A DNA stretch of 64,000 nt, taken from Victivallis vadensis. Its GTDB lineage: Bacteria; Verrucomicrobiota; Lentisphaeria; Victivallales; GWF2-50-93. Location: assembly GCA_945883805.1 (NCBI GenBank), contig CAMCYE010000005.1, positions 5,269 to 69,268 on the forward strand, given 5' to 3'. Made by a program: the position numbers and the translations under genes. This document shows, piece by piece, positions 10,539 through 56,119 of the stretch (position 1 is its first letter; the number at the start of each line of letters is the position of its first letter). The notes under the pieces are model-generated. The model saw only the letters and a program-made list of their open reading frames with translations, was not told the DNA's origin and did not search any database.

Positions 10539-10549
10539 AGGCTTAAGAC

Positions 10550-41017: not shown

Positions 41018-41056
41018 CGACCATGGCGAAGCGGGGCCAATCGGCTTCAAACTACA

Positions 41057-41450: not shown

Positions 41451-41550
41451 TTGAACTCAAACCCACTCATCCACTCATCCAACAATCCAACTTGTCACGC
41501 CGTAGCTTCTCTGCGTAGGCGGATCCATCCGTCATCCTGCGGGATGGGTC
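41451..41550 (-). repeat. ~100-nt intergenic mosaic repeat, reverse-orientation copy
   Basis: The reverse complement is nearly identical to 62669-62766 (GGATGACGGATGGATCCGCCTACGCAGAGAAGCTACGGCGTGACAAGTTGGATTGTTGGATGA...GGGTTTGAGTTCAA). Confidence 0.75.
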
Positions 41551-41674
41551 TGAAGAATAACGGAAAGGGACCGGCAAGCGCCAGCCCCCTCCCGGTTTCC
41601 CTGTCATCACTTCATGTCGAAGAGTCCTGCCAGCCGCCGTCAAGCAGTATGCCCAAAGCCAGTCACTGCAATCC

Positions 41675-42106
41675 GTGAGCCAGGTACATGATTCCATTCT
41701 CTCTTCATATCTTCAGGATGTTTTGAAGTATGAGCGGAATCTATCCGCCGATTCGGTTGAACTGATCCTTTCATCGATCATGGGGCAGGTTGGATCGCAG
41801 ATCAAATATTCACGATTGGCAGAGGGATTGAGCTCATATAAGGTCAGGCAGGCTCTACATGTATTGGAGAAGGCTTTAGTGGTGCATCCGATTCTTTCCA
41901 GTTCGGCACAAGGAGTCCCACTTGCGGGAAGCGTAAACAGCAAGGTTCTAAAAGCTGTCTTCATGGATATGGCCCAAGCGGACGTTTGCGCAGTTTACAC
42001 CTGTTTCTTCAAGCATCCCGAGACTTCAGAGGGTATTGTCCTTCATGCGGGAACTGGAGGCCGACATGACCACATCCATTTCTGTCCGCTGTACGCAAAG
42101 TTTTAG
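41675..42106 (+). pseudogene. C-terminal remnant of a DUF4143-type AAA ATPase
   Basis: GSQIKYSRLAEGLSSYKVRQALHVLEKALVVHPI resembles the DUF4143 region that follows an AAA domain. No ATPase domain exists upstream, where the repeat element abuts. The start is GTG and the tail diverges. Confidence 0.45.
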
Positions 42107-42147
42107 CCTGCATAGGACTGTGTTCTTTGCACGAGTTTTTCCCCTCT

Positions 42148-42999
42148 TCATTGCCATACCCTCTTCTTCACGCTTGTGAACCTCTGCGTCTGCACGTAGA
42201 TGTCTGTACCGGAAGCGGCTGTATAGGTATTTCTTGCAATTTTCTCAACGCCTTCAATGCCTATCTTTTCAGCGTGCCCGTCGTAAAACCATGTGTTGGC
42301 CAGATTGTTATGCCTGAGATGATAACGGGCATAATAGTCGCCAAGTGAGGCAAACTGGCTATCATCTATTGTAAGATAGACCATCTGAACCTGAGAGTTG
42401 TTCCTGTTTATTGAGTCGGTCATCCCCATGAAGCTCGAAGGGTCGGGCATGCGCCTTGTAAAAACAAAATCAGTGTTATACCCGTTGTACGCCACCCTTT
42501 GTTTGGCATAGCTTGGCAGAGTGTTAAACTGGGGAATGCCATATATGTAATGAGATGCCGTAGTACCGTCCCAGAGGGAAAGGGGTTTATTCGTCGGGCA
42601 GCGGAACATGGTATCTGACTTTATATATCCAAGATGGACATAACCGACGCCAGCAGTATTTATTGAAGTTGGAAGCGTTGAGTCGTAGAATGTGCCCCAT
42701 GAGGCACTTCCGTCGGTCTGCACTACGTAGCCGTTGAAGTCCTCCGCGTACATCAAAAAAGCTCCTAGGCCGTTCTGCTTCAAGTTGTTCATGCAGAGTG
42801 AGGCCTTTGCCACATCCTTGGCATTTTTCAGAGCAGGAAGGAGCATAGCGGCGAGTATTGCTATGATTGCTATCACTACGAGGAGCTCAATGAGGGTGAA
42901 TCTATTGCCTTGTGACCGGCGCCTAATTCCGGTCTCCGCACCCCTTGTTTCCAGTGGACTGTAATCAAATCCGTTTGAAGCCTTGTTTGGAATTCTCAT
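42148..42999 (-). CDS. Prepilin-type N-terminal methylation-domain protein with H-X9-DG motif (DUF1559-type)
   Basis: [30 protein letters not shown], and [13 protein letters not shown] near the C-terminus. Confidence 0.8.
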
Positions 43000-43495
43000 G
43001 ATCGGTGTTCCTTTCCTTAAAATTTATTTTGAACCCGTGAAGGTCTTTTTAACTATTACTTATTCTTTGATTTTTACTTTGTATTTAAAGTATGCCAACA
43101 AACTTTAACCGATTGGTGAGGAACTCTCCGCTCCTCTCTTTGATTGCTTGCTTTTTAAGCAGAATCTATCGCCGCTTCGACGGGCGACTCGGCTTTAATT
43201 GTATCATATTCACTTATCAAAAGCAAGCCTAGATCAAAGACAAACTAAAAATATGTCCTCCTTTCTATTTTCTTCACAGAAAGATATCAGCCCATCCAGA
43301 CGAGCCCGTTTTTCCCGAATTACAGCATCAATGAACAAATATGTTTCCTTTTCGTATACTTAATTATATCATTTTTTTCGAGTCTTGTCAATAGCCTGCA
43401 AGGCAAAAACCACAAATAAAACAAAAAAAAGTTTTGCTTTGTTTCTTCCGACGATATATTTTAATCTCAGTAATTTCCCCGGAGGCAACATTTTT

Positions 43496-44056
43496 ATGCA
43501 GAAAAGCAAGAACATCATAAAGGTAATCCGCAAGCAGAAGGGCATGACCCTCGACCGCCTGGCAAAGGTCACCGGTCTGACAAAAGGATACCTTTCAAAA
43601 ATCGAGCGGGCCTCGGCACTGCCGCCATTCTCCACTCTCGAACTTATCGCCAAAGCCTTCGACATCGACGTGGTGTCGATGATCGAGAAGAATTCAAGTG
43701 CGCACCTGCACCCGGACATCGATCTCATGAAGAAGGGTGAGAGGGAAGAGGGAGACGGGGCCAGCACGCGGGAGAACTGTTCCTTCACATCCCTACTCCA
43801 TTCCTACAGGGGCCGTTACATGAGCCCCATACTTGTGACCTTCGAGGCGGGCGCGGAGCGCGAGTTCGAGCACGACAGCGAGGAGTTCGTGTATGTCCTC
43901 CGCGGGAGCATCACCCTCCTCTATGAAAACGAAAGCTTTTCCTTAAGCACGGGTGATTGCTTCTACTTAGACTCCAGGAAGGAGCACCGCTTCAGGAACG
44001 GCAAGAACGGCAAGACCTACCTCCTGTCAGTATCCTTCAACTACCGCAAATACTGA
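43496..44056 (+). CDS. XRE-family HTH / C-terminal cupin transcriptional regulator, paralogue 1
   Basis: The start is trimmed to MQKSKNIIKVIRKQKGMTLDRLAKVTGLTKGYLSKIERA (HTH_3), with GGAGG 10 nt upstream. The cupin part is EEFVYVLRGSITLLYENESFSLSTGDCFYLDSRKEHRFRN. Same architecture as PuuR-type regulators. Confidence 0.8.
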   Translation: MQKSKNIIKVIRKQKGMTLDRLAKVTGLTKGYLSKIERASALPPFSTLELIAKAFDIDVVSMIEKNSSAHLHPDIDLMKKGEREEGDGASTRENCSFTSLLHSYRGRYMSPILVTFEAGAEREFEHDSEEFVYVLRGSITLLYENESFSLSTGDCFYLDSRKEHRFRNGKNGKTYLLSVSFNYRKY

Positions 44057-44112
44057 TTCCCCGATACCGGCCCGACGCAACGGTTCAGGTTGCTCCGACA
44101 TCTCCTAAAAAC

Positions 44113-44195
44113 AACCACAGAGGGCACAGAGAAATTCTAATTTACAACAGAACCATGACGAATGCGTCTCTTCTCCCTCTGTGTCCTCTGTGGTT
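44113..44195 (+). repeat. Long imperfect hairpin between regulator 1 and the downstream promoter
   Basis: AACCACAGAGGGCACAGAG (44113-44131) pairs with CTCTGTGTCCTCTGTGGTT (44177-44195) around a ~45-nt loop. It is duplicated at 56737-56819. Confidence 0.6.
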
Positions 44196-44260
44196 AGTTC
44201 CAGAAAGAGACTGGTCGATTACCTCTCCCCACAAAACTGATAAAAAAAATCAATTGGCTG

Positions 44261-44310
44261 TTGACACCAAACCTGGAATGCGTATAATATGAATGTTTCC
44301 TATTTGGAAA
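44261..44310 (+). promoter_or_regulatory. Consensus promoter plus TSS-proximal inverted repeat (candidate operator), copy 1
   Basis: TTGACA (44261-44266), a 16-nt spacer, TATAAT (44283-44288), then TTTCC-TATTT-GGAAA at 44296-44310. Confidence 0.6.
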
Positions 44311-44435
44311 TATTTAACGTCGCAACCGTGCGCTTGGCGGATGTTCGGGAACGACTTTCGCGTGTACGTCGAATTGTTCGTACATCTTCGGATCGGGAGA
44401 TAATAATTAGTAATTTGACAAGGAGAGGAGAAATC
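44295..44435 (+). promoter_or_regulatory. 5' leader of the M81 operon (first ~97 nt shared with the mmsA-operon leader)
   Basis: 44289-44391 differs from 56914-57016 at only two positions, whereas the 16-nt promoter spacer alone differs at four. It contains local stems such as GTACG-TCGAATTGTT-CGTAC. I recognised no known riboswitch class. Confidence 0.4.
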
Positions 44436-45893
44436 GTGAAGATAGCAGTAGCCGGTATAATCCAGGAGACATGCAGTTTCAGTCCCGTGAAAACGACATT
44501 GCGAAACTTCAAGATATCCTTGGGAGATGAAGTCGTATTGTCTGCAGATGCGGGCGGAGTGATTGGAGGCTTCCTCAGCGCCATGGAACACTCCTGCTGC
44601 AGTTTTACAGGGACACTGAACGCGCAGGCAATGTCTGGAGGGTCACTTTCCTCAAGCACATTACTCTTTCTGAGGAAAAAACTGTTGAATGGCCTCGGAA
44701 AGGTCCGCGGATTCGACGCCGTCTTTATTTCCCTGCACGGGGCGATGGCCTCGGATGACGAACCCGACGCCTGCGGTTTAATCCTTGAGGACGTGCGAAA
44801 ACTGGTCGGGAGCCGGTGTTTTGTAGCGGTCGAACTGGATCACCATGCAAATGTCACAAGGAGGATGGTCTCGGCGGCAGACGTGATTGCCGGCTATGAG
44901 AAACAGCCGCACGATTTGGCGGTCTCTGGCGCAAAGATGGCCAGGGTGATGTCGGACATCCTCAAATGCGGGCTAAAGCCGCATGCCTCCCTGGTCAAAA
45001 TCCCCATGCTAGCGCCGCAGGACAACTTCCTGACCTCGTCTGGGCCGATGAAAGAATGGTTCAGTCTCGCCCGTGAGATGGAAAAGGACGGGGAAGTTAT
45101 CGTCGCCTCGACTTTCCCGACCCAGCCGTGGCTGGACGCCCCCGACAACGGCTGGAGCTGCCTGGTGTATGCCGACAGCCCTGAAAAAGCGCGGAGATGC
45201 GCCGAACAACTGGCTGCAAAAGCCTGGCGAATGCGGAAGGAATTCTGGCATTCCGAGCGTCTGCCTCTCTCTGAGACCATAGCTGCGGCAAATTCTGAAC
45301 CGAAAGGACTGGTCGTGATTTCGGACACCGGCGACGCGGTGTTAGGGGGCGCCCCTGGAGACAACATGTCGATTATAGCTGAAATGCTGAAGCATGATCT
45401 GAACGGGACGGCGTTGGTTCCTGTCGTCGCACCAGATGCGTTTGCAAAGGCTCTGGCCGCAGGAGCAGGCAGTAAGATCACATTAAGCCTGGGTGGCAGG
45501 ATGAGCGCCGGTTTTTCTCCCCGCCTTAAAATATCCGGGACGGTCAGGGCTTTTGCCGGAGCCGGGGATTTCATGTTCGATGACGGGCGCAGGCGTCCGA
45601 AAGGCCGTTCAGCCCTGTTCGAGCACGGCAATCTGAAAATCGCCATACTGGAGTTGCGGGACTATTCGATAAACCATCCCTCTCTCTACCAGAATCTGGG
45701 AGTGGATGTGGAAAAAGCGCAGATGGTGGTGCTCAAGACCGGCAGCAATTTCCAATACTTCAAAGAATACCAGAGCCGCCTGATCCGCGCGGACTCGCCG
45801 GGCCCGACACAGTCGGATCTCACCGCATTCAAATGGGAAAAAAGAAGCCGTCCACTTTATCCTTTTGATGGCATAAAAAACTGGAGACCATGA
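44436..45893 (+). CDS. M81-family (MlrC-like, DUF1485 + MlrC_C) metallopeptidase homologue
   Basis: GTG 44436 is preceded by GGAGAGGAG. (V)KIAVAGIIQETCSFSP matches the family N-terminus (M-x-IAVAG-x-HETN-x-FSP). Also LHGAMASDDEPDACG ... LDHHANVT ... YEKQPHDL. Confidence 0.7.
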   Translation: MKIAVAGIIQETCSFSPVKTTLRNFKISLGDEVVLSADAGGVIGGFLSAMEHSCCSFTGTLNAQAMSGGSLSSSTLLFLRKKLLNGLGKVRGFDAVFISLHGAMASDDEPDACGLILEDVRKLVGSRCFVAVELDHHANVTRRMVSAADVIAGYEKQPHDLAVSGAKMARVMSDILKCGLKPHASLVKIPMLAPQDNFLTSSGPMKEWFSLAREMEKDGEVIVASTFPTQPWLDAPDNGWSCLVYADSPEKARRCAEQLAAKAWRMRKEFWHSERLPLSETIAAANSEPKGLVVISDTGDAVLGGAPGDNMSIIAEMLKHDLNGTALVPVVAPDAFAKALAAGAGSKITLSLGGRMSAGFSPRLKISGTVRAFAGAGDFMFDDGRRRPKGRSALFEHGNLKIAILELRDYSINHPSLYQNLGVDVEKAQMVVLKTGSNFQYFKEYQSRLIRADSPGPTQSDLTAFKWEKRSRPLYPFDGIKNWRP

Positions 45894-45896
45894 ATC

Positions 45897-46676
45897 ATGA
45901 GCAAACTTCTGGAGGGAAAGAAAGCCATAGTGACCGGAGCGTCCAGCGGCATCGGCAAAGGGATCGCCAGAATCCTTGCCAAAGAGGGTGCCGATGTGGC
46001 GTTCACTTATAGGAACAACAAGGCTGGTGCCGATGCGACGCTGAAGGAACTGGGCCAGTTCGGAGTGAAAGTCTTCTGCATGCGTTCGGACGTGAGCATA
46101 GTTTCCGGGATTGACGCGATGCTCGACGAGGCGGTGCAGGCCATGGGCGGGTTTGACATTATGGTGAACAACGCTGGCATTACCAGCAAATACCCTTTTC
46201 TTGAGATCACCGAGGCGCAGTACGACGAGTTGTTCGACATAAACTGCCGCGGCACTTTCTTCTGCACTCAGCGCGCGGCCCGCCACATGAAGGCTCATGG
46301 AGGGGGAAGCATTGTCAACATCTCCTCCTTGTCCAGCCGAGCCTCGACCGAAGGGTTCAGCGCCTACGCCTCTACAAAGGCAGCGATCAACAAGTTCACG
46401 GAGACGGCGGCAATAGAACTGGCGCCATTCCGCGTCAGGATAAACTCCGTTGCCGCAGGATGGGTTCCAGTTGAAAGCGAAAAGCCCAATACGGAGGAAT
46501 TCATCAGGGAGGCATTGAAGCATCTGCCTGTCGGGCGGTTCGGACTTCCAGACGACATCGGGGAGATGTGCGCGTTCCTGGCGTCGGACCGGGCAGCTTT
46601 TATCACCGGCCAGACCTATTTCGTGGACGGCGGCCAAACCTGCTTGCTGTCCATTCCGCAACGGAAGAACGTGTAG
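45897..46676 (+). CDS. Short-chain dehydrogenase/reductase (classical SDR)
   Basis: TGASSGIGKGIA (TGxxxGxG), NNAG, and the S ... YASTKAAINKF (YxxxK) catalytic motif. Confidence 0.85.
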   Translation: MSKLLEGKKAIVTGASSGIGKGIARILAKEGADVAFTYRNNKAGADATLKELGQFGVKVFCMRSDVSIVSGIDAMLDEAVQAMGGFDIMVNNAGITSKYPFLEITEAQYDELFDINCRGTFFCTQRAARHMKAHGGGSIVNISSLSSRASTEGFSAYASTKAAINKFTETAAIELAPFRVRINSVAAGWVPVESEKPNTEEFIREALKHLPVGRFGLPDDIGEMCAFLASDRAAFITGQTYFVDGGQTCLLSIPQRKNV

Positions 46677-46718
46677 GGAATTTTTTTCATCGGACAACAA
46701 AACATTCAGGGAGAAAAA

Positions 46719-48026
46719 ATGTCAATTGCACAAAAACTGTACGACAGGGCAAAGAAAGTGATGCCCGGAGGCGTGTGTTCCTCGACCCGTTACATTAACG
46801 CCCTTGGAAGGCCATTCTATATAGCAAGGGGCGCTGGCTCGAAAGTATATGATTACGACGGCCGCGAATACATCGACATGAACTGTTCACACGGTGCGGC
46901 CCTGCTAGGACATGGGCATCCAGCGGTGACAGAAGCTCTGGTTAAGGCCGCAGAGCTTGGATGTATCTGCTCCGCCGAGACCGAGCACCAGATAGAACTC
47001 GCCGAAAAGCTCTGCCGCATGATACCGTGCATGGAGAAAGTCCGTTTCTGCACTTCCGGCTCGGAGGCGACGATGCACATGATACGCGCCTGCCGCGGAT
47101 TCACTGGACGCGACAAAATTCTGCGGCTTGAAGGGCATTTTCACGGATACCATGAAATGATATACATCGGTGGCCAGCCCCCCATGGACAAGCTTAGGGA
47201 AAACCGCAGCAGGCCTTACATCGAATCTGCAGGTATCCCGGAGATTTTGCGTGACCTGATTGTTACAGCCCCTTTCAATGACCTTGACGCGATTAAAGAG
47301 GTCATCGATTCAAACAGGAATCAGATTGCAACCCTCATCCTGGAACCGGTGAACTACAATTCCGGAGGCATCAAGCCTGATCCGGGCTATCTGGAAGCGC
47401 TCAGGAAAATCACGGCCGACAACGGCATAATTCTGTTCTTCGATGAGATACAGTCGTCCTTCAAGAAATCCGTCGGGGGCGCACAGCAGGACTTCGGCGT
47501 CGTCCCGGATGTCTGCACCATCGGCAAGTCGCTGGGAGGTGGCGTGCCGCTCTCGGCTTTCGGCGGGAAATCAGAGATCATGGACATGTACAAGCCTTTC
47601 GGAACGGTTCAGCACAGCGGCACATTCAACGCACATCTCACACAGATCCTTCCGGGCCTGGCCTTCCTGGGCGAAATTGAGAAGCCGTATTTCTTCGCCC
47701 ATCTTGCCACGCTTGAAAACCGCCTCCACAAGGGGCTTGACCGCATCACACGAGATCTCGGAGTGCCGGTAATGTTCCCGCACCACGGCTCCCGCTTTAA
47801 TCTCGTTATGGGACTGGGGGAGGAGCCGCGACGCTACTCGGACTTGGAGAAACACGATCAGAGCCACGCCTTCGAGTTCTACCGAAGATCCGCAGAGCTC
47901 GGAGTTTACTATCATGATTACGGCAAAGGCTCGCCAGGCCACAGCGGCTACTCTATCCAGCACACTGAGGCCGACATTGACAAGATTCTGGAGTTTGCCG
48001 AGAAGGTTCTAAAGGAAATTTACTGA
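46719..48026 (+). CDS. Class-III PLP-dependent aminotransferase (HemL/GSA-aminomutase-like subgroup)
   Basis: AKKVMPGGVCSSTR, LGHGHPAV, FDEIQSSF, and DVCTIGKSLGGGVPLSAFGG with the Schiff-base Lys. Confidence 0.8.
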   Translation: MSIAQKLYDRAKKVMPGGVCSSTRYINALGRPFYIARGAGSKVYDYDGREYIDMNCSHGAALLGHGHPAVTEALVKAAELGCICSAETEHQIELAEKLCRMIPCMEKVRFCTSGSEATMHMIRACRGFTGRDKILRLEGHFHGYHEMIYIGGQPPMDKLRENRSRPYIESAGIPEILRDLIVTAPFNDLDAIKEVIDSNRNQIATLILEPVNYNSGGIKPDPGYLEALRKITADNGIILFFDEIQSSFKKSVGGAQQDFGVVPDVCTIGKSLGGGVPLSAFGGKSEIMDMYKPFGTVQHSGTFNAHLTQILPGLAFLGEIEKPYFFAHLATLENRLHKGLDRITRDLGVPVMFPHHGSRFNLVMGLGEEPRRYSDLEKHDQSHAFEFYRRSAELGVYYHDYGKGSPGHSGYSIQHTEADIDKILEFAEKVLKEIY

Positions 48027-48037
48027 ACGGTGAAGCC

Positions 48038-49096
48038 ATGCCCAAGAGTCTGATGAAACAAACCGCTGAGACCGCCACCGGGTTCTGGAACGATTCATGT
48101 GATTTGTATCAATTGAAGGAGGCGCTCGAACACGGAGCGGTAGGCGCCACATCAAATCCGGTGATAGTGACGGCCGTAGTTAAAAGTGCCCCTGAAACCT
48201 GGAACCCCCTGATCGACCGTCTCATAATCGAACATCATACGGCAAACGAGGATGACATTGCCTGGAAACTGATCGAAGAGATCGGGAAAAAAGCTGCGGA
48301 ACTCCTGATGCCGGAATTCAAAAGAAGCGGCGGCGTCAGAGGGCGTTTGTCGGTGCAGGTGGATCCGAGAAACTTCAGAGACGCCTCAGCAATGCTGGCA
48401 CAGGCGGAGAAATTGAACGGGATTGCACCGAACATCGCCGTGAAGATGCCGGTGGTTCCGGCCGGGCTGAAGGCAATCGAGGAGGCGACCGCAAAAGGGA
48501 TGACCCTAACTCCAACAGTCTGCTTCAGCGTTTCACAGGCAGTTTCCGCCGGTGAAGCCTTGGAACGCGGGTTAGACAGGGCTGCGGCCAACGGAATTGA
48601 CATATGCCAGATCCGTCCATGCGTGGCAATCATGGTCGGCCGCCTGGACGATCATCTCAGGCGTGTCATGGAAGCCCGTAAGCTCTGTATCGATCCGGGT
48701 TGTCTAGAATGGGCGGGCATAGCGGTCTTCAAGCGCGCCTACGCAATCTTCCGCAAGCGCGGCTTCAGAAGCATGCTTCTTTCGGCGGCATACCGCAACC
48801 ACATGCAGTGGTCCGAGTTCATAGGTGGAGAAGTCATCGTATCCATCCCGCACGCCTGGTGGAAACGTTTCAATGCCTCTAGCATCAAGGTGAAAGACAG
48901 CATCGGCAACCCCGTCGATCCCGCAATCGTAAAAACGCTAGAAATGAATTTCGAGGATTTCCGGCGTGCATATGAGCAGGAAGGTATGGCTCCAGAAGAA
49001 TTCCTGCAGTTCGGTGCAACAGTGCACACGCTGAAACAGTTTATCGCCTCCTATCATGAACTGCTCGAACTGATAAGGGAGAGGATGCTCAGATGA
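48038..49096 (+). CDS. Transaldolase-family protein
   Basis: GAVGATSNPVIV and NIAVKMPVVPAGLKAIE (catalytic Lys block). 352 aa. Confidence 0.7.
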   Translation: MPKSLMKQTAETATGFWNDSCDLYQLKEALEHGAVGATSNPVIVTAVVKSAPETWNPLIDRLIIEHHTANEDDIAWKLIEEIGKKAAELLMPEFKRSGGVRGRLSVQVDPRNFRDASAMLAQAEKLNGIAPNIAVKMPVVPAGLKAIEEATAKGMTLTPTVCFSVSQAVSAGEALERGLDRAAANGIDICQIRPCVAIMVGRLDDHLRRVMEARKLCIDPGCLEWAGIAVFKRAYAIFRKRGFRSMLLSAAYRNHMQWSEFIGGEVIVSIPHAWWKRFNASSIKVKDSIGNPVDPAIVKTLEMNFEDFRRAYEQEGMAPEEFLQFGATVHTLKQFIASYHELLELIRERMLR

Positions 49097-49965
49097 GACA
49101 TGAGAACATGAAGCCTGAACTGGTCTGCGATCCCGCTTGTCTCCTTGCCGAAGGGCCGCTCTGGAACCCAGCCGACCTGAAACTATATTTCACCGACATC
49201 CTGGGATGCAGCCTATGGCGCTGCGACACCGCAACCGGCAAGGTGGAGAATTTCTGGCGTGGATCCGTAAAAGTCGGAGGATTCGCCTTCAACAGGGACG
49301 GAAATATTATATTGTGCGCAGAAAACAGGGTGCTTAAACTCCACTCGGACGGCAGCACTGAAACGCTCTTCACCATGGACTTTCCGGACGGCGAACGTTT
49401 CAACGACATCACCACTGATCCGGAGGGGCGCATTTTTGCCGGCACCATGGGCTGCGGACTGTTCCGCTTTGAAAAAGGTAAAGCGCCGGTGAAACTGCTG
49501 GACGATATCCCCTGTTCAAACGGCATGACATTCAGCCTCGACTTGAAAACATTTTATCATACCGAGACCGGGAATCATGTGGTCAACTGCTACGATTACG
49601 ACCGGCATACAGGCGACATATCCAAACCTCGGGAATTTTTCAGGTGCTGCAAAGATGACGGGTTACCGGATGGTTTGACCATCGATGTGGAAGGCTGTCT
49701 TTGGCTGGCCTTATGGAACGGCGGGGCAATCATCCGTATTTCGCCAGCCGGCAAGATTTTAAGGACAATCAAGCTGCCCGCGAAAATTCCGACCAGCGTG
49801 ATGTTCGGAGGCGAAGGGCTGAAGGAATTGTTCATTACAACTTCAAGTTACGGGCGGACCGACGATATAAAAAGGGTAAACTCCAAAGGGGAGTTCCTAG
49901 GTGGCGGAGTTTTCCGCATTGTGCCGGGAGTGGCCGGCAGGGCCGAATGGCCGGCGGATTTTTAA
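49093..49965 (+). CDS. SMP-30 / gluconolactonase / LRE-family lactonase
   Basis: LAEGPLWNP, NDITTDPEGRIFAGTM, SNGMTFS, PDGLTIDVEGCLWLALWNGG, PTSVMFGG. ATGA overlap with the transaldolase stop. Confidence 0.85.
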   Translation: MRHENMKPELVCDPACLLAEGPLWNPADLKLYFTDILGCSLWRCDTATGKVENFWRGSVKVGGFAFNRDGNIILCAENRVLKLHSDGSTETLFTMDFPDGERFNDITTDPEGRIFAGTMGCGLFRFEKGKAPVKLLDDIPCSNGMTFSLDLKTFYHTETGNHVVNCYDYDRHTGDISKPREFFRCCKDDGLPDGLTIDVEGCLWLALWNGGAIIRISPAGKILRTIKLPAKIPTSVMFGGEGLKELFITTSSYGRTDDIKRVNSKGEFLGGGVFRIVPGVAGRAEWPADF

Positions 49966-50022
49966 ATTCAGAGTTAGGGAATTTCAACGCTTGTGTTAAT
50001 TTAACGCTGAAAGCGTGTGGTA

Positions 50023-50196
50023 ATATAGCCTATGGTTTCAACCATAGGGACTATGATCATGATGATTGCGTCCTGAATGGACGAAGTGTATCCATGTTTT
50101 TGGGTTAGCTACTTAAAAACAACTCCGTCTCTTCAAGACGAACAGATGTGTATGAGCTACCTGTGGTTGAAACCACAGGCTATAATACATTATCCC
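50023..50196. repeat. ~170-bp palindromic element with ~26-bp inverted ends inside the operon-1 region
   Basis: ATATAGCCTATGGTTTCAACCATAGG (50023-50048) against CCTGTGGTTGAAACCACAGGCTATAAT (50170-50196, reverse complement ATTATAGCCTGTGGTTTCAACCACAGG). Each end is itself a hairpin. Confidence 0.6.
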
Positions 50197-50326
50197 TCCG
50201 GGATAGAGAGAAAGCTAATCTAGGAATAAAAGGAAATAACAAAATTAAATATCCTTTGAATCCTGTTATCCTGTCAATAAAATCTTAAATTCCGGAGCAG
50301 TCGGCCAAGTACAAATTAGGGAATTC

Positions 50327-51127
50327 ATGAAACTCAGTTGTCTACCTGTGTCTTTTTATCCGGATTTCAGATCAGGGCAAATGGATATCTCCGGATGGTC
50401 CGCCATGGCTGAAAAGTTCGGCCTTGACTCGATCGACCTGAGCGTACTGATCACCCGCTGTGACAGGTCAATACCTTCGTTCCCTGTTGACACCGTGGCC
50501 ACATATACCGACTTCACGCATCCCGACAAGACAGTCAGGGAATGCGAATTCAACAGTTTCATGGATGATGTCAGGGACTGTGCGAGAATCGGAGCGCGCT
50601 ATTTGCGTGTCACCGCCGGACAGGCTCATCCGGAAACTTCCACCTGCAGCGGTTTGGACTGGGCGGCGGATTATCTGGGTAAAGCTGCGGATTTCGCAAA
50701 ATCTGAAAACATCGGGCTGTTGTTTGAAAACCATTCGAAACCGGGAGTCTGGAAATATTACGATTTTGCAGGAGAACCGGAGATTTATTTTGAACTTGTG
50801 AAGCGTCTTGAGGGCGTCAACATAGATCTGCTGTTCGACACGGCCAATGCGTGTTTCTACAGGCAGGATCCGGTGCTTATGCTTGAAAAAATATTCCCGC
50901 GCGTACGGCGCATCCATGTCGCGGACATCGCCGAATCGGATGATTTGAAGCCGGTCTTGATTGGGCACGGCATTGTTCCGCTGTCGGAAATATTCGGTTA
51001 CCTGGGCCGGAATGGATTTATCGGCTCCTTGTCAATCGAAGAAGCATCCTTTTGTGGGGCCGATGGGGTCGAAAAAGCCGTCCGCGCCACCAGGTGCCTA
51101 TGGCGTGACGCATGTTTTGGGGCATGA
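50327..51127 (+). CDS. Sugar phosphate isomerase/epimerase (xylose-isomerase-like TIM barrel)
   Basis: 266 aa. GARYLRVTAGQ, LLFENHSKPG, HVADI. Confidence 0.7.
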   Translation: MKLSCLPVSFYPDFRSGQMDISGWSAMAEKFGLDSIDLSVLITRCDRSIPSFPVDTVATYTDFTHPDKTVRECEFNSFMDDVRDCARIGARYLRVTAGQAHPETSTCSGLDWAADYLGKAADFAKSENIGLLFENHSKPGVWKYYDFAGEPEIYFELVKRLEGVNIDLLFDTANACFYRQDPVLMLEKIFPRVRRIHVADIAESDDLKPVLIGHGIVPLSEIFGYLGRNGFIGSLSIEEASFCGADGVEKAVRATRCLWRDACFGA

Positions 51128-51230
51128 GCATCACGTGCCGGCAATATTAATAGGATTTTATTAACGACATCACCGGCTGTCGAATATTTTTTGGAATTTC
51201 TGGAAAAATAAATATAAGGACGGATAGCAT

Positions 51231-53204
51231 ATGAATTTCCCAAAAGTCTGGAGAGAGCCTCTCAATGACTATATTCCATCAACACTGAGGATGGAGGCGG
51301 CTCGCTTTTTCAGGATCCACCAGTTGCCGGATAATCTCGAAAAATGGATGGTTGAAAGGAAAAAGCTGAGAGACAGGATCTGGAACTCTCTTGGAGTGAG
51401 CTTTGATAACTCTATCCCGCTGGACTACCATGAGACTGGTACTGTTGATATGGACGGGTACAAGGTGAAAAAAATATACTTTCAGAGCCGGAAGGACTTT
51501 TATGTGACCGGAAATCTTTATGTGCCCGAAGGGAAAGGCCCGTTTCCCGCTGTTCTTTGTTTGCATGGACACTGGCAGCGCGGCCGTTTGACTGAAAGGG
51601 TTCAGGCCAGGGGGCACAGCCTGGCCAAGAACGGTTATGTATGTCTTGCCGTGGATGTTTTCGGTGCCGGTGAACGCTCGACAACCCATGGGGAATATGA
51701 AAATCATGGCAGCATGCTTGGCGCCTCGCTGATGAACATAGGTGAGACGCTAATGGGAATCCAGGTGGTCGACAACATGAGAGGTATTGATCTGCTCTGT
51801 TCGCTGGATTTCGTGGATAAGTCCAGAATCGGGGCAACAGGTGCGAGCGGGGGCGGCAATCAGACGATGTGGCTCGCCGCCATGGATGACAGGGTGAAAG
51901 CAGCCATGCTTGTGGTGAGCGTGGGAACTTTCGAATCATATGTCATGGGGGGCAACTGCATATGCGAACTGCTTCCGGACGGTCTTACCTATACCGAAGA
52001 ATCCGGTGTCCTCGCCCTTGTTGCGCCAAGGGCTTTGAAGATTTGCAATTGCCTTGGGGACGACAACCCCACTTTCTTTCCATCTGAGATGCTGCGCAGC
52101 TATGCGGAGGCGAGAAATATTTTCCAGGCATATGAGGCTGATGGGAATCTTGCCTATCAGATATTCAATCTGCCGCATGGATTCTGGCCTGAAATCCGTG
52201 AAGCGATGCTGGGGTGGTTTGATCTGCATCTCAAGGGAGTTGGACACGGAAGTCCGAAGAGGGAAATTCCCTTTGAATATCTTCCGGAAGACAAGGCGAT
52301 GGTTTTTGAAAAGGGTAAAAGGGATGAGAAAGTCATTTCAATTGCCCGTTATTGCCATGAAAAAGGGGAGCTGCTAAAAAGGGCGTTTCTGGAAAATAAA
52401 AACATAGATGCGCCCAAATCACGCAACGATCTGATGAAAATGCTTAGAATCACTGCATGGCAGAAAATCAAAAAGCCCCATATGTATTCACCGGAAGATG
52501 GATGGGAGCGCATCGCCTTGGAAACTGAATGCGGACGTATGGTTCCGATCCTTTTCAGGAAGCCCTCTTCAGAGGACGATGATTTTCTGATTTTGGCGGC
52601 ACCTGACTCCAAGGAGAAACTGCTCGGTTCGAGCATATTCAAAGAAGCCATGGATTCTGGAAAAGGCTTGCTTATACTGGATCTCTGGGGAACCGGAGAA
52701 ACATGCTGTAATGATAAACAGGAACAAATGTATCGGGATCTTCCGAGGGCTATCTTATGGCTTGGCAGGACATTCATGGGTGAATGGTGCATGGATTTCT
52801 CATTGGCAGCCGCATATGTCAGGATGACATATCCGGAAGCCCATATAACTGTCGGCGGCACCAGAGGAGCCGGACTTGCAGCCCTGTTTTTTTCGGCGAT
52901 TGAAGGAAAGTCAGTTCCTGCTGTTTTGGAAAAATGCCCGGCCTCATTGGTCTTCCATGGGAAAGCTCCGTCCGAATATTCGGCCATGGTTGACTATCTT
53001 CCAGGATTCCTCGTCTGGGGGGACGTTTCACTGGCAGCGGCCTTGACCGGGGCGGATGTCAGCTTCATTGATCCTCTTTACAGCGACTTGGAGCCGGTGG
53101 ATAATGAAGGAATACTGAAACTGAAGAGCGAATTCGACAGCGTCAGGAGATTCTGCGGAACTTCCGGCACGATACGTTTTATGAATGCTAAACAGGGTGT
53201 CTGA
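51231..53204 (+). CDS. Alpha/beta-hydrolase-fold protein (esterase / dienelactone-hydrolase-like), cytoplasmic
   Basis: FPAVLCLHGHW, nucleophile elbow GATGASGGGNQTMW, and a ~300-aa C-terminal extension. No signal peptide. Confidence 0.55.
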   Translation: MNFPKVWREPLNDYIPSTLRMEAARFFRIHQLPDNLEKWMVERKKLRDRIWNSLGVSFDNSIPLDYHETGTVDMDGYKVKKIYFQSRKDFYVTGNLYVPEGKGPFPAVLCLHGHWQRGRLTERVQARGHSLAKNGYVCLAVDVFGAGERSTTHGEYENHGSMLGASLMNIGETLMGIQVVDNMRGIDLLCSLDFVDKSRIGATGASGGGNQTMWLAAMDDRVKAAMLVVSVGTFESYVMGGNCICELLPDGLTYTEESGVLALVAPRALKICNCLGDDNPTFFPSEMLRSYAEARNIFQAYEADGNLAYQIFNLPHGFWPEIREAMLGWFDLHLKGVGHGSPKREIPFEYLPEDKAMVFEKGKRDEKVISIARYCHEKGELLKRAFLENKNIDAPKSRNDLMKMLRITAWQKIKKPHMYSPEDGWERIALETECGRMVPILFRKPSSEDDDFLILAAPDSKEKLLGSSIFKEAMDSGKGLLILDLWGTGETCCNDKQEQMYRDLPRAILWLGRTFMGEWCMDFSLAAAYVRMTYPEAHITVGGTRGAGLAALFFSAIEGKSVPAVLEKCPASLVFHGKAPSEYSAMVDYLPGFLVWGDVSLAAALTGADVSFIDPLYSDLEPVDNEGILKLKSEFDSVRRFCGTSGTIRFMNAKQGV

Positions 53205-53283: not shown

Positions 53284-55806
53284 TCATGGCTTCTTGAACT
53301 GATCCGCGCTCCTGTTAACCAGGATGATTCTGTCGACAAGCACAAGTTCCGTCCCCTTCATTCCCGGGCTTCCGGCAAAGTGCTTTCTTTCTGCGACGGG
53401 AAGAAGGGCCTCGTCCGGCTTGTTCCCGTATGCCCCCGCCGCGTCAAACTTGAGCGAGACATAGACGTCCCATACATTCTCGCCTCCCGCTTCGAAAAGC
53501 TTGTCCCCAAACTCTATATTCGTATCCCATCCCCTTGAGAACCAGAGCATGCAGTCAGTGGTGGCCTTGACCGTGCCTAGTTTATATAGGACGTATCCAC
53601 CCGGTTTTATCTCATTCAATTCTAAAGAGCGTTTTGCCGCAACCGTCTTTATGTCGTTCTGGTAGAATCCGAACGTGAATGGCAGATCGGGCATTGCCAC
53701 TGGCACCGCATATCCGAAAGCAGCATCCTTGTCCAGGACGGATTTTGGACCCGGCCGGCGTTTTGGATATTTGGGGAGATATTGACGTATCAATGAGGGA
53801 TCAATTCCGGCTAGCTCCTGTGGCAGGGGCTTTGAATGGCCGCCGGCCTGGATGACAGTGATGAAATCGCCCGGCGAAGATCCCCTAGTCTGCTGGCGGT
53901 TGATGCCTTTCTTCTCCCAGGCCAGAGCGAGAATCTCCTTGGCGCTGTTAACTGCTTCTATGCGGTCCGAAAACACCTTGTAGTCGGTATAATATTCCGG
54001 TTGCACTTTCTTCAAATCAAACCATTTCCACAATGCCGCCAAGTCCAGTTCCCGCCTCAATAGACGGACATTCCCCAGAAACCGTTCCGGTTGCCCCTTG
54101 AGCCCTGACTCCATCTGGTCGAAATACGTCTCCCAGCGGTGGATGTTTTCGGCGGTAAGATATGGGAATGTGCGGGCATCCGTGTTTGACGACGTGTAGG
54201 TAACGTTGGGCGGCAGGGCCATTGTCTTGCGGCACTGTTCAAGTTCCGCCATGTATTTCCTAGCCAGAGGTGCTGCAGAACCGTAGAAATTGTCGGTGAC
54301 CTCAATGATTAACTTTTCCGTGTCGCAATTCACATCCTGCATGAGCTTATATAGCAAATAGCTCTGCAGATCGCTGAAGTTGCTGCGGGCGTTGAAGCCG
54401 GCACCCTGGTCCAGGAAGACGCCCTCCACTCCGGCCTTGTGCAGCATCCTGATATTTTTTATGTTCCGTTCGATGTTTCCGACCGGCATCGCCACTCCAC
54501 TGCCGGACGGGTGCGGATACAGCCATGCCCACAAGTGCGACGATATCCTCCTCCATTCCAGAAGATCGCGATATGTGTCCTGTATGCGAGCGTCAGGATT
54601 CTCCCAGTCGGCAAAGTAATTGTCCTCGATATGGGCGAAGTCGACGATTATGTTTTCCGGTAAACGCACACCTTCAGCAAGTGCCGGGGGCTTCTGCGTC
54701 TGTGCCCGGCGGTAGGCCAGCGTCTTGACCAAGATGTCCGGGTGCTTGCTTTTCAGCATCGTACACAGTTCGATAAGATAATCATAGAAAGGGCCGCCCG
54801 GGCTTTTATATTTCTCCTCAAGCTCCTTGCAGGGCTTGCAGTAGCAGAACGGCCCGGGATTGTCCTGGGCGCAGAGGCTCAACGCTCCGCGGCCTCCGAT
54901 GATTGAAATGTGTTTGAGAATGTTCTTCGTCAACTCCTCCCTCAGCTTTGGATTAGAGAAGCAAAGCTGCCTGCTGTCTATGCGCTGGCCGTTATCCCAC
55001 AAGGAGAAAAAATCCGGGTTGGTCGCAAAATAGTTCTTTGTAACCCAGTCATAGCGTCCGGCCTCTTCTGACTTGGGATTAGGAGTTATATAGCTGAAAA
55101 GATTGTGGGTGGCGGCGAGGTCCGCATCAGGTATTTCGGATACAAATCTGTTCAAGTCAGGCGATGTGTTGCCTTTCAGCCGCTGTCTTTTGACATGTTC
55201 GTCGAACCCCATGTTCATTCTCTGCTGGTAGAAGAAATCCAAGCCGCGGCGGTTGCTTACGCACCTGTATGCAAATGAAAACCCCTTTTGCCGCTCAAAC
55301 GGCTCCAGGATGAGTGTGCGCCTGGCGGGAATCACGGGCGACTCGAACACCGAGTACCAGCGCCAGCCCAGCGAGTTCTCCAGGAAATCCATTACTGCGT
55401 ACAAGTTGCCGTGGACGCCTTTGCCGTAGAGGAAAATATCCTGTCCGACGTTGCGGACAACAAATTCCTGATCCTTGAGTTTCAGCATGGGGTCGCTGCC
55501 GAGGTGTTTCACCACAGGCCCGCTGACACCTATGTAGATGGAGGGCTTGCCTGCGGTAGCATCGCTGGGGGTTGTAATCGGAAATTTTACGCCTGTGATG
55601 AGTTCAAGATAGCCGGCCAATTCCTTGGCGGCATAGTCATCCACCAGTGTCGGCGAATCAGGTTTGACTATGGAATAGCCCGTATTACCGTCCTTCGACA
55701 AGAGCAACTGTCCGCCGGTGTCGTTCCCGGCTAAAATGTCTGGGGACGATGCAAAAGAGACAGTGGCGAGAACCATGGCCGAGATGCAATATTTCAGCTT
55801 CATCAT
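53284..55806 (-). CDS. Secreted DUF4838-like protein (GH20/GH67-like N-terminal domain architecture)
   Basis: The start is trimmed to MMKLKYCISAMVLATVSFASS (signal peptide). PSIYIGVSGPVVKHLG ... FVVRNVGQDIFLYGKGVHGNLYAVMDFLENSLGWRWY resembles DUF4838 proteins as I recall them. Confidence 0.55.
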   Translation of the reverse strand: MMKLKYCISAMVLATVSFASSPDILAGNDTGGQLLLSKDGNTGYSIVKPDSPTLVDDYAAKELAGYLELITGVKFPITTPSDATAGKPSIYIGVSGPVVKHLGSDPMLKLKDQEFVVRNVGQDIFLYGKGVHGNLYAVMDFLENSLGWRWYSVFESPVIPARRTLILEPFERQKGFSFAYRCVSNRRGLDFFYQQRMNMGFDEHVKRQRLKGNTSPDLNRFVSEIPDADLAATHNLFSYITPNPKSEEAGRYDWVTKNYFATNPDFFSLWDNGQRIDSRQLCFSNPKLREELTKNILKHISIIGGRGALSLCAQDNPGPFCYCKPCKELEEKYKSPGGPFYDYLIELCTMLKSKHPDILVKTLAYRRAQTQKPPALAEGVRLPENIIVDFAHIEDNYFADWENPDARIQDTYRDLLEWRRISSHLWAWLYPHPSGSGVAMPVGNIERNIKNIRMLHKAGVEGVFLDQGAGFNARSNFSDLQSYLLYKLMQDVNCDTEKLIIEVTDNFYGSAAPLARKYMAELEQCRKTMALPPNVTYTSSNTDARTFPYLTAENIHRWETYFDQMESGLKGQPERFLGNVRLLRRELDLAALWKWFDLKKVQPEYYTDYKVFSDRIEAVNSAKEILALAWEKKGINRQQTRGSSPGDFITVIQAGGHSKPLPQELAGIDPSLIRQYLPKYPKRRPGPKSVLDKDAAFGYAVPVAMPDLPFTFGFYQNDIKTVAAKRSLELNEIKPGGYVLYKLGTVKATTDCMLWFSRGWDTNIEFGDKLFEAGGENVWDVYVSLKFDAAGAYGNKPDEALLPVAERKHFAGSPGMKGTELVLVDRIILVNRSADQFKKP

Positions 55807-56119
55807 GGTGTCCAAGAGCCTCGTTAATGGCTTAGTGTTTAATAGTTGACCTTTTGAAATATTCTCCATTTCTCCCATCCTCCTGTTTTTTTTGGCTCGA
55901 ATATGTTGTTATTTCTTCTTCCATCGCCCCTGCGAATGAATACTGCCGTCCTTGCCTTCGGGCAAATATGTTTCCTTATTGTATACTTTATTATATCATT
56001 TTTCCGGATCTTGTCAATAGCCTGCACGGCAAAAAACACAAATAAAACAAAAAAGTTTTGCTTTGTTTCTTCCGACGATATATTTTAATCCCAGTAATTT
56101 CCACGAAGGCAAGATCCTG

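Follow-up and report, generated by a model that had tools for sequence, protein, structure and literature searches.

In a 64,000-nucleotide (nt) window of Victivallis vadensis DNA (GenBank assembly GCA_945883805.1, contig CAMCYE010000005.1), an unusual combination of enzyme genes at positions 44436–53204 forms a conserved operon. A chance neighborhood is excluded because the block recurs in independent contigs, with 48–91% protein identity to the window. Judging from the enzyme families and their replacements among relatives, we consider it probable that the block specifies a route by which an N-acylated amino sugar is catabolized in the cytoplasm. The glycosidase, beta-helix, and esterase genes accompanying the block probably serve to free the sugar from a glycan of bacterial type. 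To our knowledge, most of the unusual N-acylated amino sugars found in bacterial surface glycans have no known degradation route. The original prediction for this DNA had proposed an amino-sugar or glycoconjugate route, which gains support from the conservation of the block, the glycoside hydrolases embedded in it (GH39, GH28-like, and beta-helix), and the replacement of its aminotransferase by DegT enzymes in some relatives. The further claim that no characterized pathway has this set agrees with the searchable literature, where neither M81/DUF1485 clusters, nor transaldolase in inositol catabolism, nor sets of transaldolase, aminotransferase, and lactonase gave a match. All coordinates below are positions in the window, and the comparative loci are labeled L001–L159.

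The block starts with five closely packed genes on the forward strand. They encode an M81 (MlrC-like) metallo-amidohydrolase (44436–45893; PF07364, E = 9e-70, and PF07171, 2e-32), a classical short-chain dehydrogenase/reductase (SDR; 45897–46676; PF13561/PF00106, with PF13561 at 8e-65), a class III aminotransferase of the HemL-like clade (46719–48026; PF00202, 1e-55), a protein of the transaldolase (TAL)/FSA family that we class as Q-type, T-subtype (48038–49096; PF00923, 3e-40), and a lactonase of the SMP-30/gluconolactonase family (SGL; 49093–49965; PF08450, 7e-62). The first four genes are separated by gaps of 3 nt (M81 to SDR), 42 nt (SDR to aminotransferase), and 11 nt (aminotransferase to TAL), and the TAL and SMP-30 genes overlap by 4 nt; the open reading frame coordinates reproduce the originally given spacing exactly. 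A 361-nt spacer (49966–50326) separates the lactonase gene from those of a xylose isomerase-like (XI-like) TIM barrel (50327–51127; PF01261, 1e-21) and a 657-amino-acid (aa) alpha/beta hydrolase with an AXE1-like N-terminal half (51231–53204; PF05448, 4e-13), both on the same strand and both as first described. The repeats noticed earlier in the spacer turned out to be two inverted copies of the Acido-Lenti-1 RNA motif (Rfam RF01687), located at 50003–50048 on the minus strand and 50160–50205 on the plus strand (46.0 and 38.7 bits against a gathering score of 37); the pair is the inverted repeat I5 of the window. All seven of the original family assignments passed hidden Markov model searches (Pfam; NCBIfam). 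We take the GTG at 44436 as the correct M81 start because a ribosome-binding site, AAGGAGAGGAG, lies just 5' of it, the homologues start at MKIA in agreement with it, and the longer ATG frame (from 44289) crosses a noncoding leader that is duplicated before another gene. No signal peptide was predicted in any core enzyme, and the seven core proteins are apparently soluble and cytoplasmic.

Relatives were found via homologues of the TAL protein, contig look-ups, and pattern scans with an M81 alignment, and the window proteins were compared against all loci by tblastn. Full blocks consist of a divergent XRE-cupin regulator followed by the genes for M81, SDR, aminotransferase, TAL, SGL, XI-like protein, and an aldehyde dehydrogenase (ALDH), and were seen in L005, L006 (identical to L018, a Victivallales metagenome-assembled genome [MAG]), L019 (identical to L095), L153, and L154. 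The block is also present in L152, with no ALDH in view, and as a fragment in L017 (M81 88% and SDR 91% identity); the best match to the window was an uncultured Victivallis contig with 88–91% protein identity. This match and the Acido-Lenti-1 motif assign the source of the window to the Lentisphaerota (Victivallales). The order is shuffled in L157 (DegT, M81, TAL, XI, regulator, and SGL, with an SDR nearby), and reduced versions were found in L058, a Planctomycetota MAG (sigma-54 activator followed by TAL, ALDH, aminotransferase, and M81), in L155 (DegT, TAL, XI, and SDR), and in L156 (M20, XI, one other gene, aminotransferase, TAL, and XI). In this gene-neighborhood comparison, a check named with the original prediction, the block recurs in five full contigs, one fragment, and one shuffled version. 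The L019 contig (LBWG01000023.1; 15.7 kb) is labeled Candidatus Uhrbacteria and carries a DUF4838 gene upstream of its full block; the block shows 63–81% identity to the Victivallales versions. Such gene content is unexpected in a bacterium of the candidate phyla radiation, and the contig may be misbinned.

The most distinctive member of the set is the TAL protein, a 352-aa long-form enzyme belonging to the TAL_FSA superfamily (PF00923, 138.8 bits against 27), with the Schiff-base lysine (VKMP) and the TSNP motif present. Read from alignments, its catalytic motif SVQVDP has Gln in place of TalB Glu96 (S-x-E-V-D-P in transaldolase). Met occupies the position of TalB Phe178 and FSA Tyr131, Thr that of TalB Asn154, and Ala that of Ser176; every subtype retains the arginines of MVGR and AAYR. 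All transaldolase equivalog models scored far below their cut-offs (the best 111 bits against 367); given this and the replacement of the catalytic Glu, we conclude from the sequence that the protein is not a classical transaldolase (EC 2.2.1.2). Of the features of FSA, equivalents of Gln59 and Ala129 are present, the equivalent of Tyr131 is Met, and TIGR00875 gave 45 bits against 246. The transaldolase of the original prediction thus holds at the level of family (PF00923) and probably not for classical C3-unit transfer, the protein with its Gln for Glu being probably an FSA-like aldolase of a special clade. No other gene of the TAL_FSA family was found in the genome by tblastn.

Among the 120 closest homologues, 78 were of N-type (Asn154 and Thr176), 34 of T-type (Thr154 and Ala or Val176), and one was mixed. 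A maximum-likelihood tree separated the two types and placed the window protein among 24 sequences that form a clade of 100% aLRT support. We take TalB positions 154 and 176 to bind the C1 hydroxyl of the donor and, from the motif offset, TalB Ser176 to correspond to FSA Ala129, five residues before the conserved Arg. In FSA, Ala129 cannot hydrogen-bond the donor C1-OH, and the wild-type enzyme accepts hydroxyacetone and hydroxybutanone; the substitution A129S, designed to hydrogen-bond the C1-OH, raised the efficiency with dihydroxyacetone (DHA) 17-fold (PMC3962088, PMC7767278). The T-type clade appears to have lost both ligands of the donor C1 hydroxyl. An aminotransferase gene is adjacent to TAL in 11 of the 12 T-type contexts read and in none of the 10 N-type contexts, nine of which are IolG/B/D/E/A clusters and one, L001, has an IolG-like gene only. 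On the basis of the lost ligands, the two conserved tail arginines, and the adjacent aminotransferase, we read the T-type enzyme as a putative aldolase for a keto acid whose keto group would come from transamination, whose 1' carbon would not be hydroxylated, and whose far end would be acidic.

The N-type relatives share 45–58% identity with the window protein and sit in IolG-IolB-IolD-IolE-TAL-IolA clusters in which neither the kinase IolC nor the aldolase IolJ occurs. Such kinase-free iol clusters with TAL were present in all eight other genomes of the phylum having a homologue, as well as in other phyla. They include L003 (7344–17359), from a Lentisphaerota genome, and L145–L151 (about 7800–16500 each), from seven family f21 genomes of the same phylum, all with an N-subtype TAL and with neither IolC nor IolJ. 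The gene content points to a kinase-free end of inositol catabolism, and we found no description of these clusters in the searchable literature.

Three slots of the block, those of the aminotransferase, the deacylase, and the dehydrogenase, show non-orthologous replacement. The aminotransferase is a HemL-like class III enzyme in the window, L005, L006, L019, L153, and L058, a GABA-AT-like class III enzyme in L156, and a DegT/DnrJ/EryC1 enzyme in L152, L154, L155, and L157. DegT enzymes are sugar or cyclitol aminotransferases, and as they fill this slot, the amine handled by the block would sit on a sugar carbon; the DegT versions scanned (L154 and L155) had their top scores with C4-aminotransferase families (such as WecE, PseC, and ArnB). 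In the deacylase slot, M81 is replaced by an M20 amidohydrolase in L156. The dehydrogenase is similar to methylmalonate-semialdehyde dehydrogenase (MMSDH) in the window, L006, L019, L153, and L058, and a SauS-like 458-aa enzyme in L005 (12225–13601) and L154 (8052–9428), the latter two scoring 556 and 552 bits, just below the SauS equivalog cut-off of 600. Both the MMSDH and the SauS families form CoA thioesters, and their textbook substrates are small acidic aldehydes.

These replacements also bear on the idea that the substrate of M81 and the aminotransferase is an amide outside sugar metabolism, a conjugate of a beta-amino acid or an omega-amine such as a beta-alanine or taurine amide, with the sugar enzymes being separate and merely co-regulated. 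MlrC cuts beside Adda, a beta-amino acid, the HemL-like clade includes beta-transaminases (PDB 2yku and 4ao9), and beta-alanine or taurine would lead directly to malonate semialdehyde or sulfoacetaldehyde, fitting both dehydrogenase types. Nevertheless, we hold the idea to be very unlikely: a sugar aminotransferase takes the place of the class III enzyme in the same slot, the adjacency of aminotransferase and TAL in T-type contexts extends to loci without M81 (L155) or without ALDH (L152, L155, L156, and L157), and the genes are tightly packed, with the 4-nt overlap and gaps of 3 and 11 nt. A pantothenate-type or other beta-alanine amide, from which M81 would free beta-alanine for conversion to malonate semialdehyde by the aminotransferase, was dropped because of the DegT sugar aminotransferases in the aminotransferase slot.

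The dehydrogenase of the window is encoded by mmsA (57116–58636, plus strand) and is a CoA-acylating enzyme of the MMSDH family (TIGR01722, 565.7 bits against 448.5), matching solved MMSDH structures at about 3e-138; from its position in relatives, we consider it the last core enzyme of the ancestral operon. We take Arg124 and Arg301 (ALDH numbering) to be the carboxylate-binding arginines of MMSDH. The ERC motif (Arg301-Cys302) is kept, and four block MMSDHs of the Victivallales type have Lys-Ala where iol-linked and solved MMSDHs have Arg-Gly or Arg-Ala, at a position mapped to Arg124 by residue count and not from structure. The replacement hints at a changed 3-oxo-acid substrate.

The families in the dehydrogenase slot and the N-type relatives raise another explanation, in which an amino derivative is cleaved to malonate semialdehyde or sulfoacetaldehyde. 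The donor would resemble 2-deoxy-5-keto-gluconate, as in inositol-cluster chemistry, or be a 5-deoxy-5-sulfo-pentulose, and would derive from an aminated sulfosugar, an aminocyclitol, or an iminosugar lactam. The textbook substrates of MMSDH (OHC-CH2-COO-) and SauS (OHC-CH2-SO3-) fit such products, the inositol clusters without IolC and IolJ pair a related TAL with IolA, and in sulfoglycolysis an SDR and an SMP-30 lactonase open the sulfo-ED route while transaldolase and isomerase define the sulfo-TAL route (PMC12890257). The genome, however, is without IolD, IolB, and IolE and thus without inosamine ring-opening, the T-subtype has lost the C1-OH ligands kept by inositol-type enzymes, which suggests a different donor, and the block MMSDH has Lys-Ala in place of the canonical Arg-Gly. 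An aminated sulfosugar was not found in the searchable literature, and no sulfoquinovosidase, sulfonate exporter, or CoA-ligase gene was seen in the block versions, with no dedicated sulfoglycolysis search made. Taken together, cleavage to these aldehydes seems quite unlikely. Two specific candidates were rejected on the same grounds: entry of an inosamine or rhizopine-type aminocyclitol into the iol pathway, as tblastn with the L003 Iol proteins against the 91%-complete assembly gave only paralogues of about 25–27% identity for IolD, IolB, and IolE and did not reveal an inositol pathway, and aminated sulfoquinovose, as we found no such compound in the searchable literature.

In the pathway that we propose for an N-acylated amino sugar, the SDR would first oxidize C1 of the free sugar to a lactone, and the SMP-30 lactonase would open the lactone to an aldonate, providing an anionic tail for the two arginines of the TAL enzyme. 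The M81 amidohydrolase would then strip the N-acyl group, the aminotransferase would convert the amine-bearing carbon to a ketone, and the XI-like metal enzyme would epimerize the keto-alcohol or shift it to the needed configuration. The Q-type TAL-fold enzyme would form a lysine Schiff base with the ketone and split the molecule by a retro-aldol reaction to a C3 ketone unit and an acidic aldehyde. The donor end would in this step probably be a methyl or other non-hydroxyl group, because both ligands of the C1 hydroxyl are lost and an FSA-like Gln replaces Glu. Finally, the MMSDH-like dehydrogenase would capture the short acidic aldehyde, of 3-oxopropanoate type (tartronate, malonate, or methylmalonate semialdehyde), as a CoA thioester, and the XRE-cupin repressor would control all of the steps from a consensus promoter with a palindromic operator.

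As for the sugar itself, our best single guess, a possible but tentative one, is an N-acyl-4-amino-4,6-dideoxyhexose of the viosamine, perosamine, or Fuc4NAc type. We arrive at it because the DegT versions resemble C4 aminotransferases, a methyl terminus matches a non-hydroxylated 1' carbon, oxidation at C1 gives an acidic tail, moving the keto group from C4 to C5 needs an isomerase, and such sugars are always N-acylated. Perosamine, viosamine, and Fuc4NAc occur in O-antigens, enterobacterial common antigen, and S-layer glycans. The route would give acetol and tartronate semialdehyde, the latter being isosteric with methylmalonate semialdehyde. A bolder extension, which we regard as doubtful, is that the T-subtype is a new kind of aldolase that moves or releases a 1-deoxy (acetol-type) unit from 6-deoxy-5-keto-aldonates and that, with M81, aminotransferase, SDR, lactonase, and XI-like protein, it would constitute the first catabolic pathway for N-acyl-4-amino-4,6-dideoxyhexoses, ending in a CoA-acylating tartronate-semialdehyde dehydrogenase.

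Several points weigh against the proposed scheme. The order of the steps was derived from family chemistry only. The dehydrogenase families imply aldehydes of the form X-CH2-CHO or HOOC-CHR-CHO, malonate semialdehyde would have to come from a 2-deoxy acid, which cannot be obtained from any common amino sugar, and, though tartronate semialdehyde fits sugar chemistry, we know of no precedent for a CoA-acylating tartronate-semialdehyde dehydrogenase. The Planctomycetota locus L058 is without SDR, lactonase, and XI-like genes, and the steps assigned to these may thus not be essential. No version of the block contains a transporter. One T-type TAL, P0019, has no aminotransferase within 10 kb. Finally, M81 and M20D enzymes are known for acting on N-acyl-alpha-amino acids, which favors a 2-amino over a 4-amino aldonate. 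The neighbors of P0019 include genes for a beta-hydroxyacid dehydrogenase (NAD_binding_2), a tagaturonate/fructuronate epimerase (UxaE), several SDRs, an XI-like protein, and URO-D/B12-binding methyltransferases, and the locus may represent a variant for uronates or 6-deoxy sugars that reduces the aldehyde instead of oxidizing it.

The preference of the deacylases leads to a rival substrate, a common 2-acetamido sugar or uronic acid (GlcNAc, GalNAc, or ManNAc, or a sugar of the GalNAcA/ManNAcA/TalNAcA type). Oxidation would produce an N-acetyl-hexosaminate, which belongs to the N-acyl alpha-amino acids; after its deacylation by M81, the aminotransferase would yield a 2-keto-aldonate or 2-keto-aldarate; the TAL enzyme would then split the 2-keto acid, for example to hydroxypyruvate and glyceraldehyde or tartronate semialdehyde. 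Such a route would suit M81 (MlrC) and the M20D-type enzyme of L156, whose classical substrates are N-acyl amino acids carrying a free alpha-carboxylate, and the transamination of an alpha-amino acid is the most ordinary of pyridoxal phosphate (PLP) reactions. Moreover, uronic-acid glycosides are the typical substrates of GH28-like, GH39, and GH4 enzymes, a PIG-L/LmbE deacetylase of the GlcNAc type follows GH4 just past the window, and XI-like proteins accompany 2-ketogluconate operons (KguE). Several points concerning the TAL enzyme speak against this route: no TAL/FSA-family enzyme is known with a 2-keto acid donor, the 1'-ligand positions have become Thr and Ala or Val instead of the positive residue that a 1'-carboxylate would require, and neutral sugars would leave an uncharged tail, yet both tail-binding arginines are conserved. 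As the DegT replacements are also closest to C4-aminotransferases, we rate the 2-acetamido route as unlikely.

Two further substrates were considered and rejected. A serinol amide of a uronic acid, from which the aminotransferase would make DHA for an FSA reaction, leaves MMSDH without a role, and the T-subtype is without C1-OH ligands for DHA. A 3-amino-3,6-dideoxyhexose, through decarboxylation of a 3-keto-aldonate to a 5-deoxypentulose and on to acetaldehyde, would give every enzyme a role, but a hydroxylated 1' carbon and a neutral tail would then be expected, contrary to what the TAL residues suggest.

The other enzymes were assigned roles in the proposed amino-sugar pathway from their family matches. 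The M81 protein belongs clearly to its family (235.6 bits against 22.8 for PF07364 and 113.5 against 27.2 for PF07171) and matches PDB entries 3iuu (2e-43) and microcystinase C 7ylq (1e-40), but with 162.4 bits against the cut-off of 999 in model NF041767 it is not MlrC proper; we propose that it is an N-deacylase of an amino-sugar acid. The SDR passes the NCBIfam model of the glucose 1-dehydrogenase subfamily (236.8 bits, cut-off 215), and a PDB sequence search gave generic FabG and GlcDH neighbors only; its proposed role is that of a sugar 1-dehydrogenase yielding a lactone. The lactonase matches PF08450 with 209.7 bits against 26.3 and has its best PDB matches in regucalcin/SMP30 (1e-40), and together the two are proposed to turn a free aldose into an aldonate and so supply the acidic tail. 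Housekeeping HemL was ruled out for the aminotransferase, which scores 351.5 bits against the hemL cut-off of 527.3 (TIGR00713), as the genome has a separate true hemL on contig C4 (587.4 bits); a transaminase from amino-sugar acid to keto-sugar acid is proposed instead.

The XI-like protein (PF01261, 77.9 bits against 31.1) has a metal site, E134/D171/H197/E238, that is invariant in 10 homologues, and its orthologues are found beside the TAL gene in L155, L156, and L157. Its AlphaFold model (pLDDT 93) was compared by Foldseek, and the predicted structure resembles the Art22 isomerase, UlaE, ketose 3-epimerases (DTE/DPE), and IolI with TM scores of 0.71–0.80. We propose that it epimerizes or isomerizes its substrate beside the newly formed keto group; hydroxypyruvate isomerase was rejected, as the protein has no match to that family. 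The alpha/beta hydrolase lacks a signal peptide, has paralogues in the genome, and is absent from the block in L005, L006, L019, L153, and L154. It is probably a carbohydrate esterase and would represent an accessory gene inserted where the relatives carry mmsA.

Glycan-degrading genes are inserted into the block of several relatives: L006 has a pectate-lyase-fold gene, GH39, and one gene without known family, L019 and L152 have a GH28-like gene, and L153 and L154 have GH39. The insertion points differ between the relatives. These genes are relevant for the opposite direction of metabolism, a biosynthetic cluster making, for example, an iminosugar or amino-polyol with aldolase, transaminase, and dehydrogenase. 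Iminosugar synthesis follows just such a logic of aldolase, transaminase, and reductase, for which FSA is reported to serve in vitro (PMC9597598, PMC11848910). The block, however, combines embedded glycoside hydrolases and an esterase with a lactonase, an amidohydrolase, and a CoA-acylating dehydrogenase under a repressor-type regulator, has no exporter, kinase, or phosphatase, and occurs patchily in glycan-degrading Victivallales. Even though the deoxynojirimycin pathway also uses a class III aminotransferase, biosynthesis appears highly improbable.

The regulator precedes the operon within a cassette that occurs twice in the window and nowhere else in the 3.48-Mb assembly. Copy 1 (43336–44435, plus strand) comprises the regulator, promoter, palindrome, and leader up to the M81 start, and copy 2 (55963–57016, plus strand) is 92–94% identical to it. 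The XRE-HTH/cupin regulators (Pfam HTH_3 and Cupin_2), encoded at 43496–44056 and 56120–56680 on the plus strand, are 93.5% identical as proteins. A promoter scan found in each copy a perfect sigma-70 promoter, TTGACA-16-TATAAT (12/12 consensus positions; 44261–44288 and 56886–56913, plus strand), and, immediately after its -10 box, a TTTCC-N5-GGAAA palindrome with TATTT as the center (44289–44320 and 56914–56945), a candidate operator of the XRE-cupin regulator. Each copy also has an outward promoter on the minus strand (43391–43363 and 56017–55990), both 12/12 with an extended -10 TG. A word related to the palindrome, ATGTTTCC, lies near the outward promoters at 43340 and 55967. The copy-1 outward promoter faces a gene for a prepilin-type protein with an N-terminal methylation motif (42148–42999), and that of copy 2 faces the DUF4838 gene. 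The regulator gene is co-directional with the operon in the window and divergent in the relatives. A link to amine catabolism through a PuuR-type regulator, part of the original prediction, deserves little weight, as the PuuR model scored 54 bits against a cut-off of 211.

Reciprocal relics connect the two cassette-headed operons. The segment 51057–51172, which spans the 3'-terminal ~70 nt of the XI gene, the following spacer, and a defunct mmsA start, recurs at 57015–57128, before the live mmsA and just behind the second cassette. On the copy-1 side, 51107–51172 (plus strand; repeat D3 and alignment) is a relic of the ancestral XI–mmsA junction with spacer and dead start TTATTAACGACATCA, which matches the live start GTTATGAACGACATCA at 57113–57128; on the copy-2 side, 57015–57112 (plus strand; repeats D7 and D3 and the alignment with 51057–51172) is a relic of the XI-like 3' end, fused behind the leader. 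In L006, L019, and L153, an MMSDH-type dehydrogenase with 81–86% identity to the window mmsA directly follows the XI-like gene. Because of these relics and the gene order of the relatives, the simplest history is that the two operons descend from one ancestral operon through duplication and complementary deletions. Copy 1 would have kept M81 through XI and then gained the esterase-like hydrolase, copy 2 would have kept mmsA and the downstream glycan genes, and the outcome would be two co-regulated transcription units. The MmsA-type enzyme earlier placed in a sister operon is confirmed as to its family (TIGR01722), but the operon is not a separate one and makes up the tail of the same ancestral unit. 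The history is a clean case of duplication and complementary loss with the regulator and promoter kept in both copies.

Between the two operons, the minus strand encodes a DUF4838 protein with an N-terminal hydrophobic segment (53284–55878; PF16126, 1e-38), which is probably exported, presumed to be glycan-active, and would be driven by the copy-2 outward promoter. Downstream of mmsA on the plus strand follow genes for an exported 316-aa protein (58609 onward, with the probable true start near 58684 according to N-terminus analysis), a 710-aa protein with a sub-threshold hint of a beta-helix (59556–61688; TIGR03805, 20 bits against a cut-off of 141.5), a 319-aa protein without family (61685–62644), and a GH4 enzyme (PF02056 and PF11975) extending from 62792 past the window end at 64000. 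Pfam at E = 1 gave no usable family for the 316-, 710-, and 319-aa proteins of the window or for a 314-aa protein of L006. Past the window, operon 2 continues on the same strand after GH4 (contig C5, 69475–76702; L159) with genes for a PIG-L/LmbE-type N-deacetylase, the alpha subunit of a class I fumarase/tartrate dehydratase, an M20 peptidase, the beta subunit, an AtuA-family protein, and a PGA_cap (CapA-like) protein; a PGA_cap gene is also found beside the shuffled block in L157. The 3.48-Mb genome contains at least 14 loci of the GH4 family, with 27–72% identity to the GH4 at 62792, and many DUF4838 and GFO_IDH_MocA paralogues. Its repertoire of NAD-dependent glycosidases is unusually large.

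Among 301 reference genomes of the same phylum, the T-type TAL is carried by the genome of the window only, and the same-genus reference genome has no T-type TAL gene. At the start of the block, the GC content rises from 0.47 (40582–44000) to 0.53–0.55 (44001–50000), and a tRNA gene (40582–40655) lies 2.7 kb upstream. The rarity in the phylum, the higher-GC stretch, the nearby tRNA gene, and the lack of the TAL gene in the same-genus genome are consistent with the block being an accessory, mobile trait acquired horizontally.

The findings bear on how glycan specialists of the gut and sediment recycle unusual amino sugars. The operon offers a defined set of seven soluble core proteins that can be expressed and assayed, and it links two widely recurring modules without known function, M81 with aminotransferase and Gln-type TAL with CoA-acylating dehydrogenase. 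Identifying a single substrate in this operon would probably allow many proteins of several phyla to be annotated. If true, the proposed pathway would add a kinase-free C–C cleavage to sugar-acid metabolism, and an FSA-like aldolase taking acidic substrates could interest biocatalysis.

Compared with known systems, the closest likeness is seen in the TAL enzyme and its partner in the kinase-free inositol clusters. These share with the window the TAL clade (45–58% identity), the Gln for catalytic Glu, the Met at TalB Phe178, both tail arginines, and the pairing with an MMSDH-family dehydrogenase. In contrast, the window enzyme belongs to the sister T-subtype (Asn154 to Thr and Ser/Thr176 to Ala), it is accompanied by an amidohydrolase, an aminotransferase, an SDR, and a lactonase where the clusters have IolG/E/D/B, and the genome is without inositol ring-opening genes. 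Escherichia coli FSA has the same TAL-fold lysine Schiff base, Gln for the transaldolase Glu, and Ala at the C1-OH position, but it is a 220-aa decamer-type enzyme with a catalytic Tyr131, whereas the window protein is of the 352-aa long form with Met there, and the two match weakly (E about 4e-6 over 90 residues). In FSA, the Gln and Ala accompany true aldolase activity and the acceptance of hydroxyacetone (PMC3962088, PMC7767278).

The surrounding enzymes resemble other routes. Like the proposed pathway, sulfo-ED opens with an SDR sugar 1-dehydrogenase and an SMP-30 lactonase, and sulfo-TAL uses an isomerase and a transaldolase to free an acidic C3 aldehyde for a dehydrogenase, with an acylating dehydrogenase of SauS type known from a sulfo-TK variant (PMC12890257). 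Neither sulfo-ED nor sulfo-TAL has an amidohydrolase or aminotransferase, and no sulfoquinovosidase, SQ isomerase, or sulfonate exporter was noticed in the loci read, for which no dedicated search was run. The known sulfofructose transaldolases belong to another TAL subfamily. The oxidative non-phosphorylative routes for L-fucose, L-rhamnose, and L-arabinose (Weimberg/Dahms) similarly make an aldonate with a 1-dehydrogenase and a lactonase and end in aldol cleavage and aldehyde oxidation without a kinase. There, however, a dehydratase generates the keto group and pyruvate is set free by an aldolase of the DHDPS or HpcH type, whereas the window would make the keto group by deacylase and transaminase and cleave by a TAL-fold enzyme. 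MlrC (microcystinase C, MEROPS M81) shares the two-domain M81 fold (PF07364 and PF07171; 1e-40 to 7ylq), but the block has no mlrA, mlrB, or mlrD and its context is that of sugar catabolism and not of peptide breakdown. Another M81-centered cluster was seen in freshwater Actinomycetota (L123, 990–16965), with similar Ilumatobacteraceae loci in L079, L083, L084, L088, L128, L130, and L139. It combines SGL, a PhyH dioxygenase, a peptide-type ABC importer, two SDRs, M81, an IlvD/EDD sugar-acid dehydratase, a class III aminotransferase, and an M14 carboxypeptidase, and may be a second M81-built pathway for sugar amides. By analogy, the block of the window would borrow the logic of the oxidative sugar routes, the use of a TAL-fold enzyme on an acidic unphosphorylated ketose from sulfo-TAL and kinase-free inositol catabolism, and the steps of amino-sugar biosynthesis in reverse. 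A sugar-catabolic operon is in itself of a known type; what is new is the combination of the enzymes and an aldolase subtype without a characterized member.

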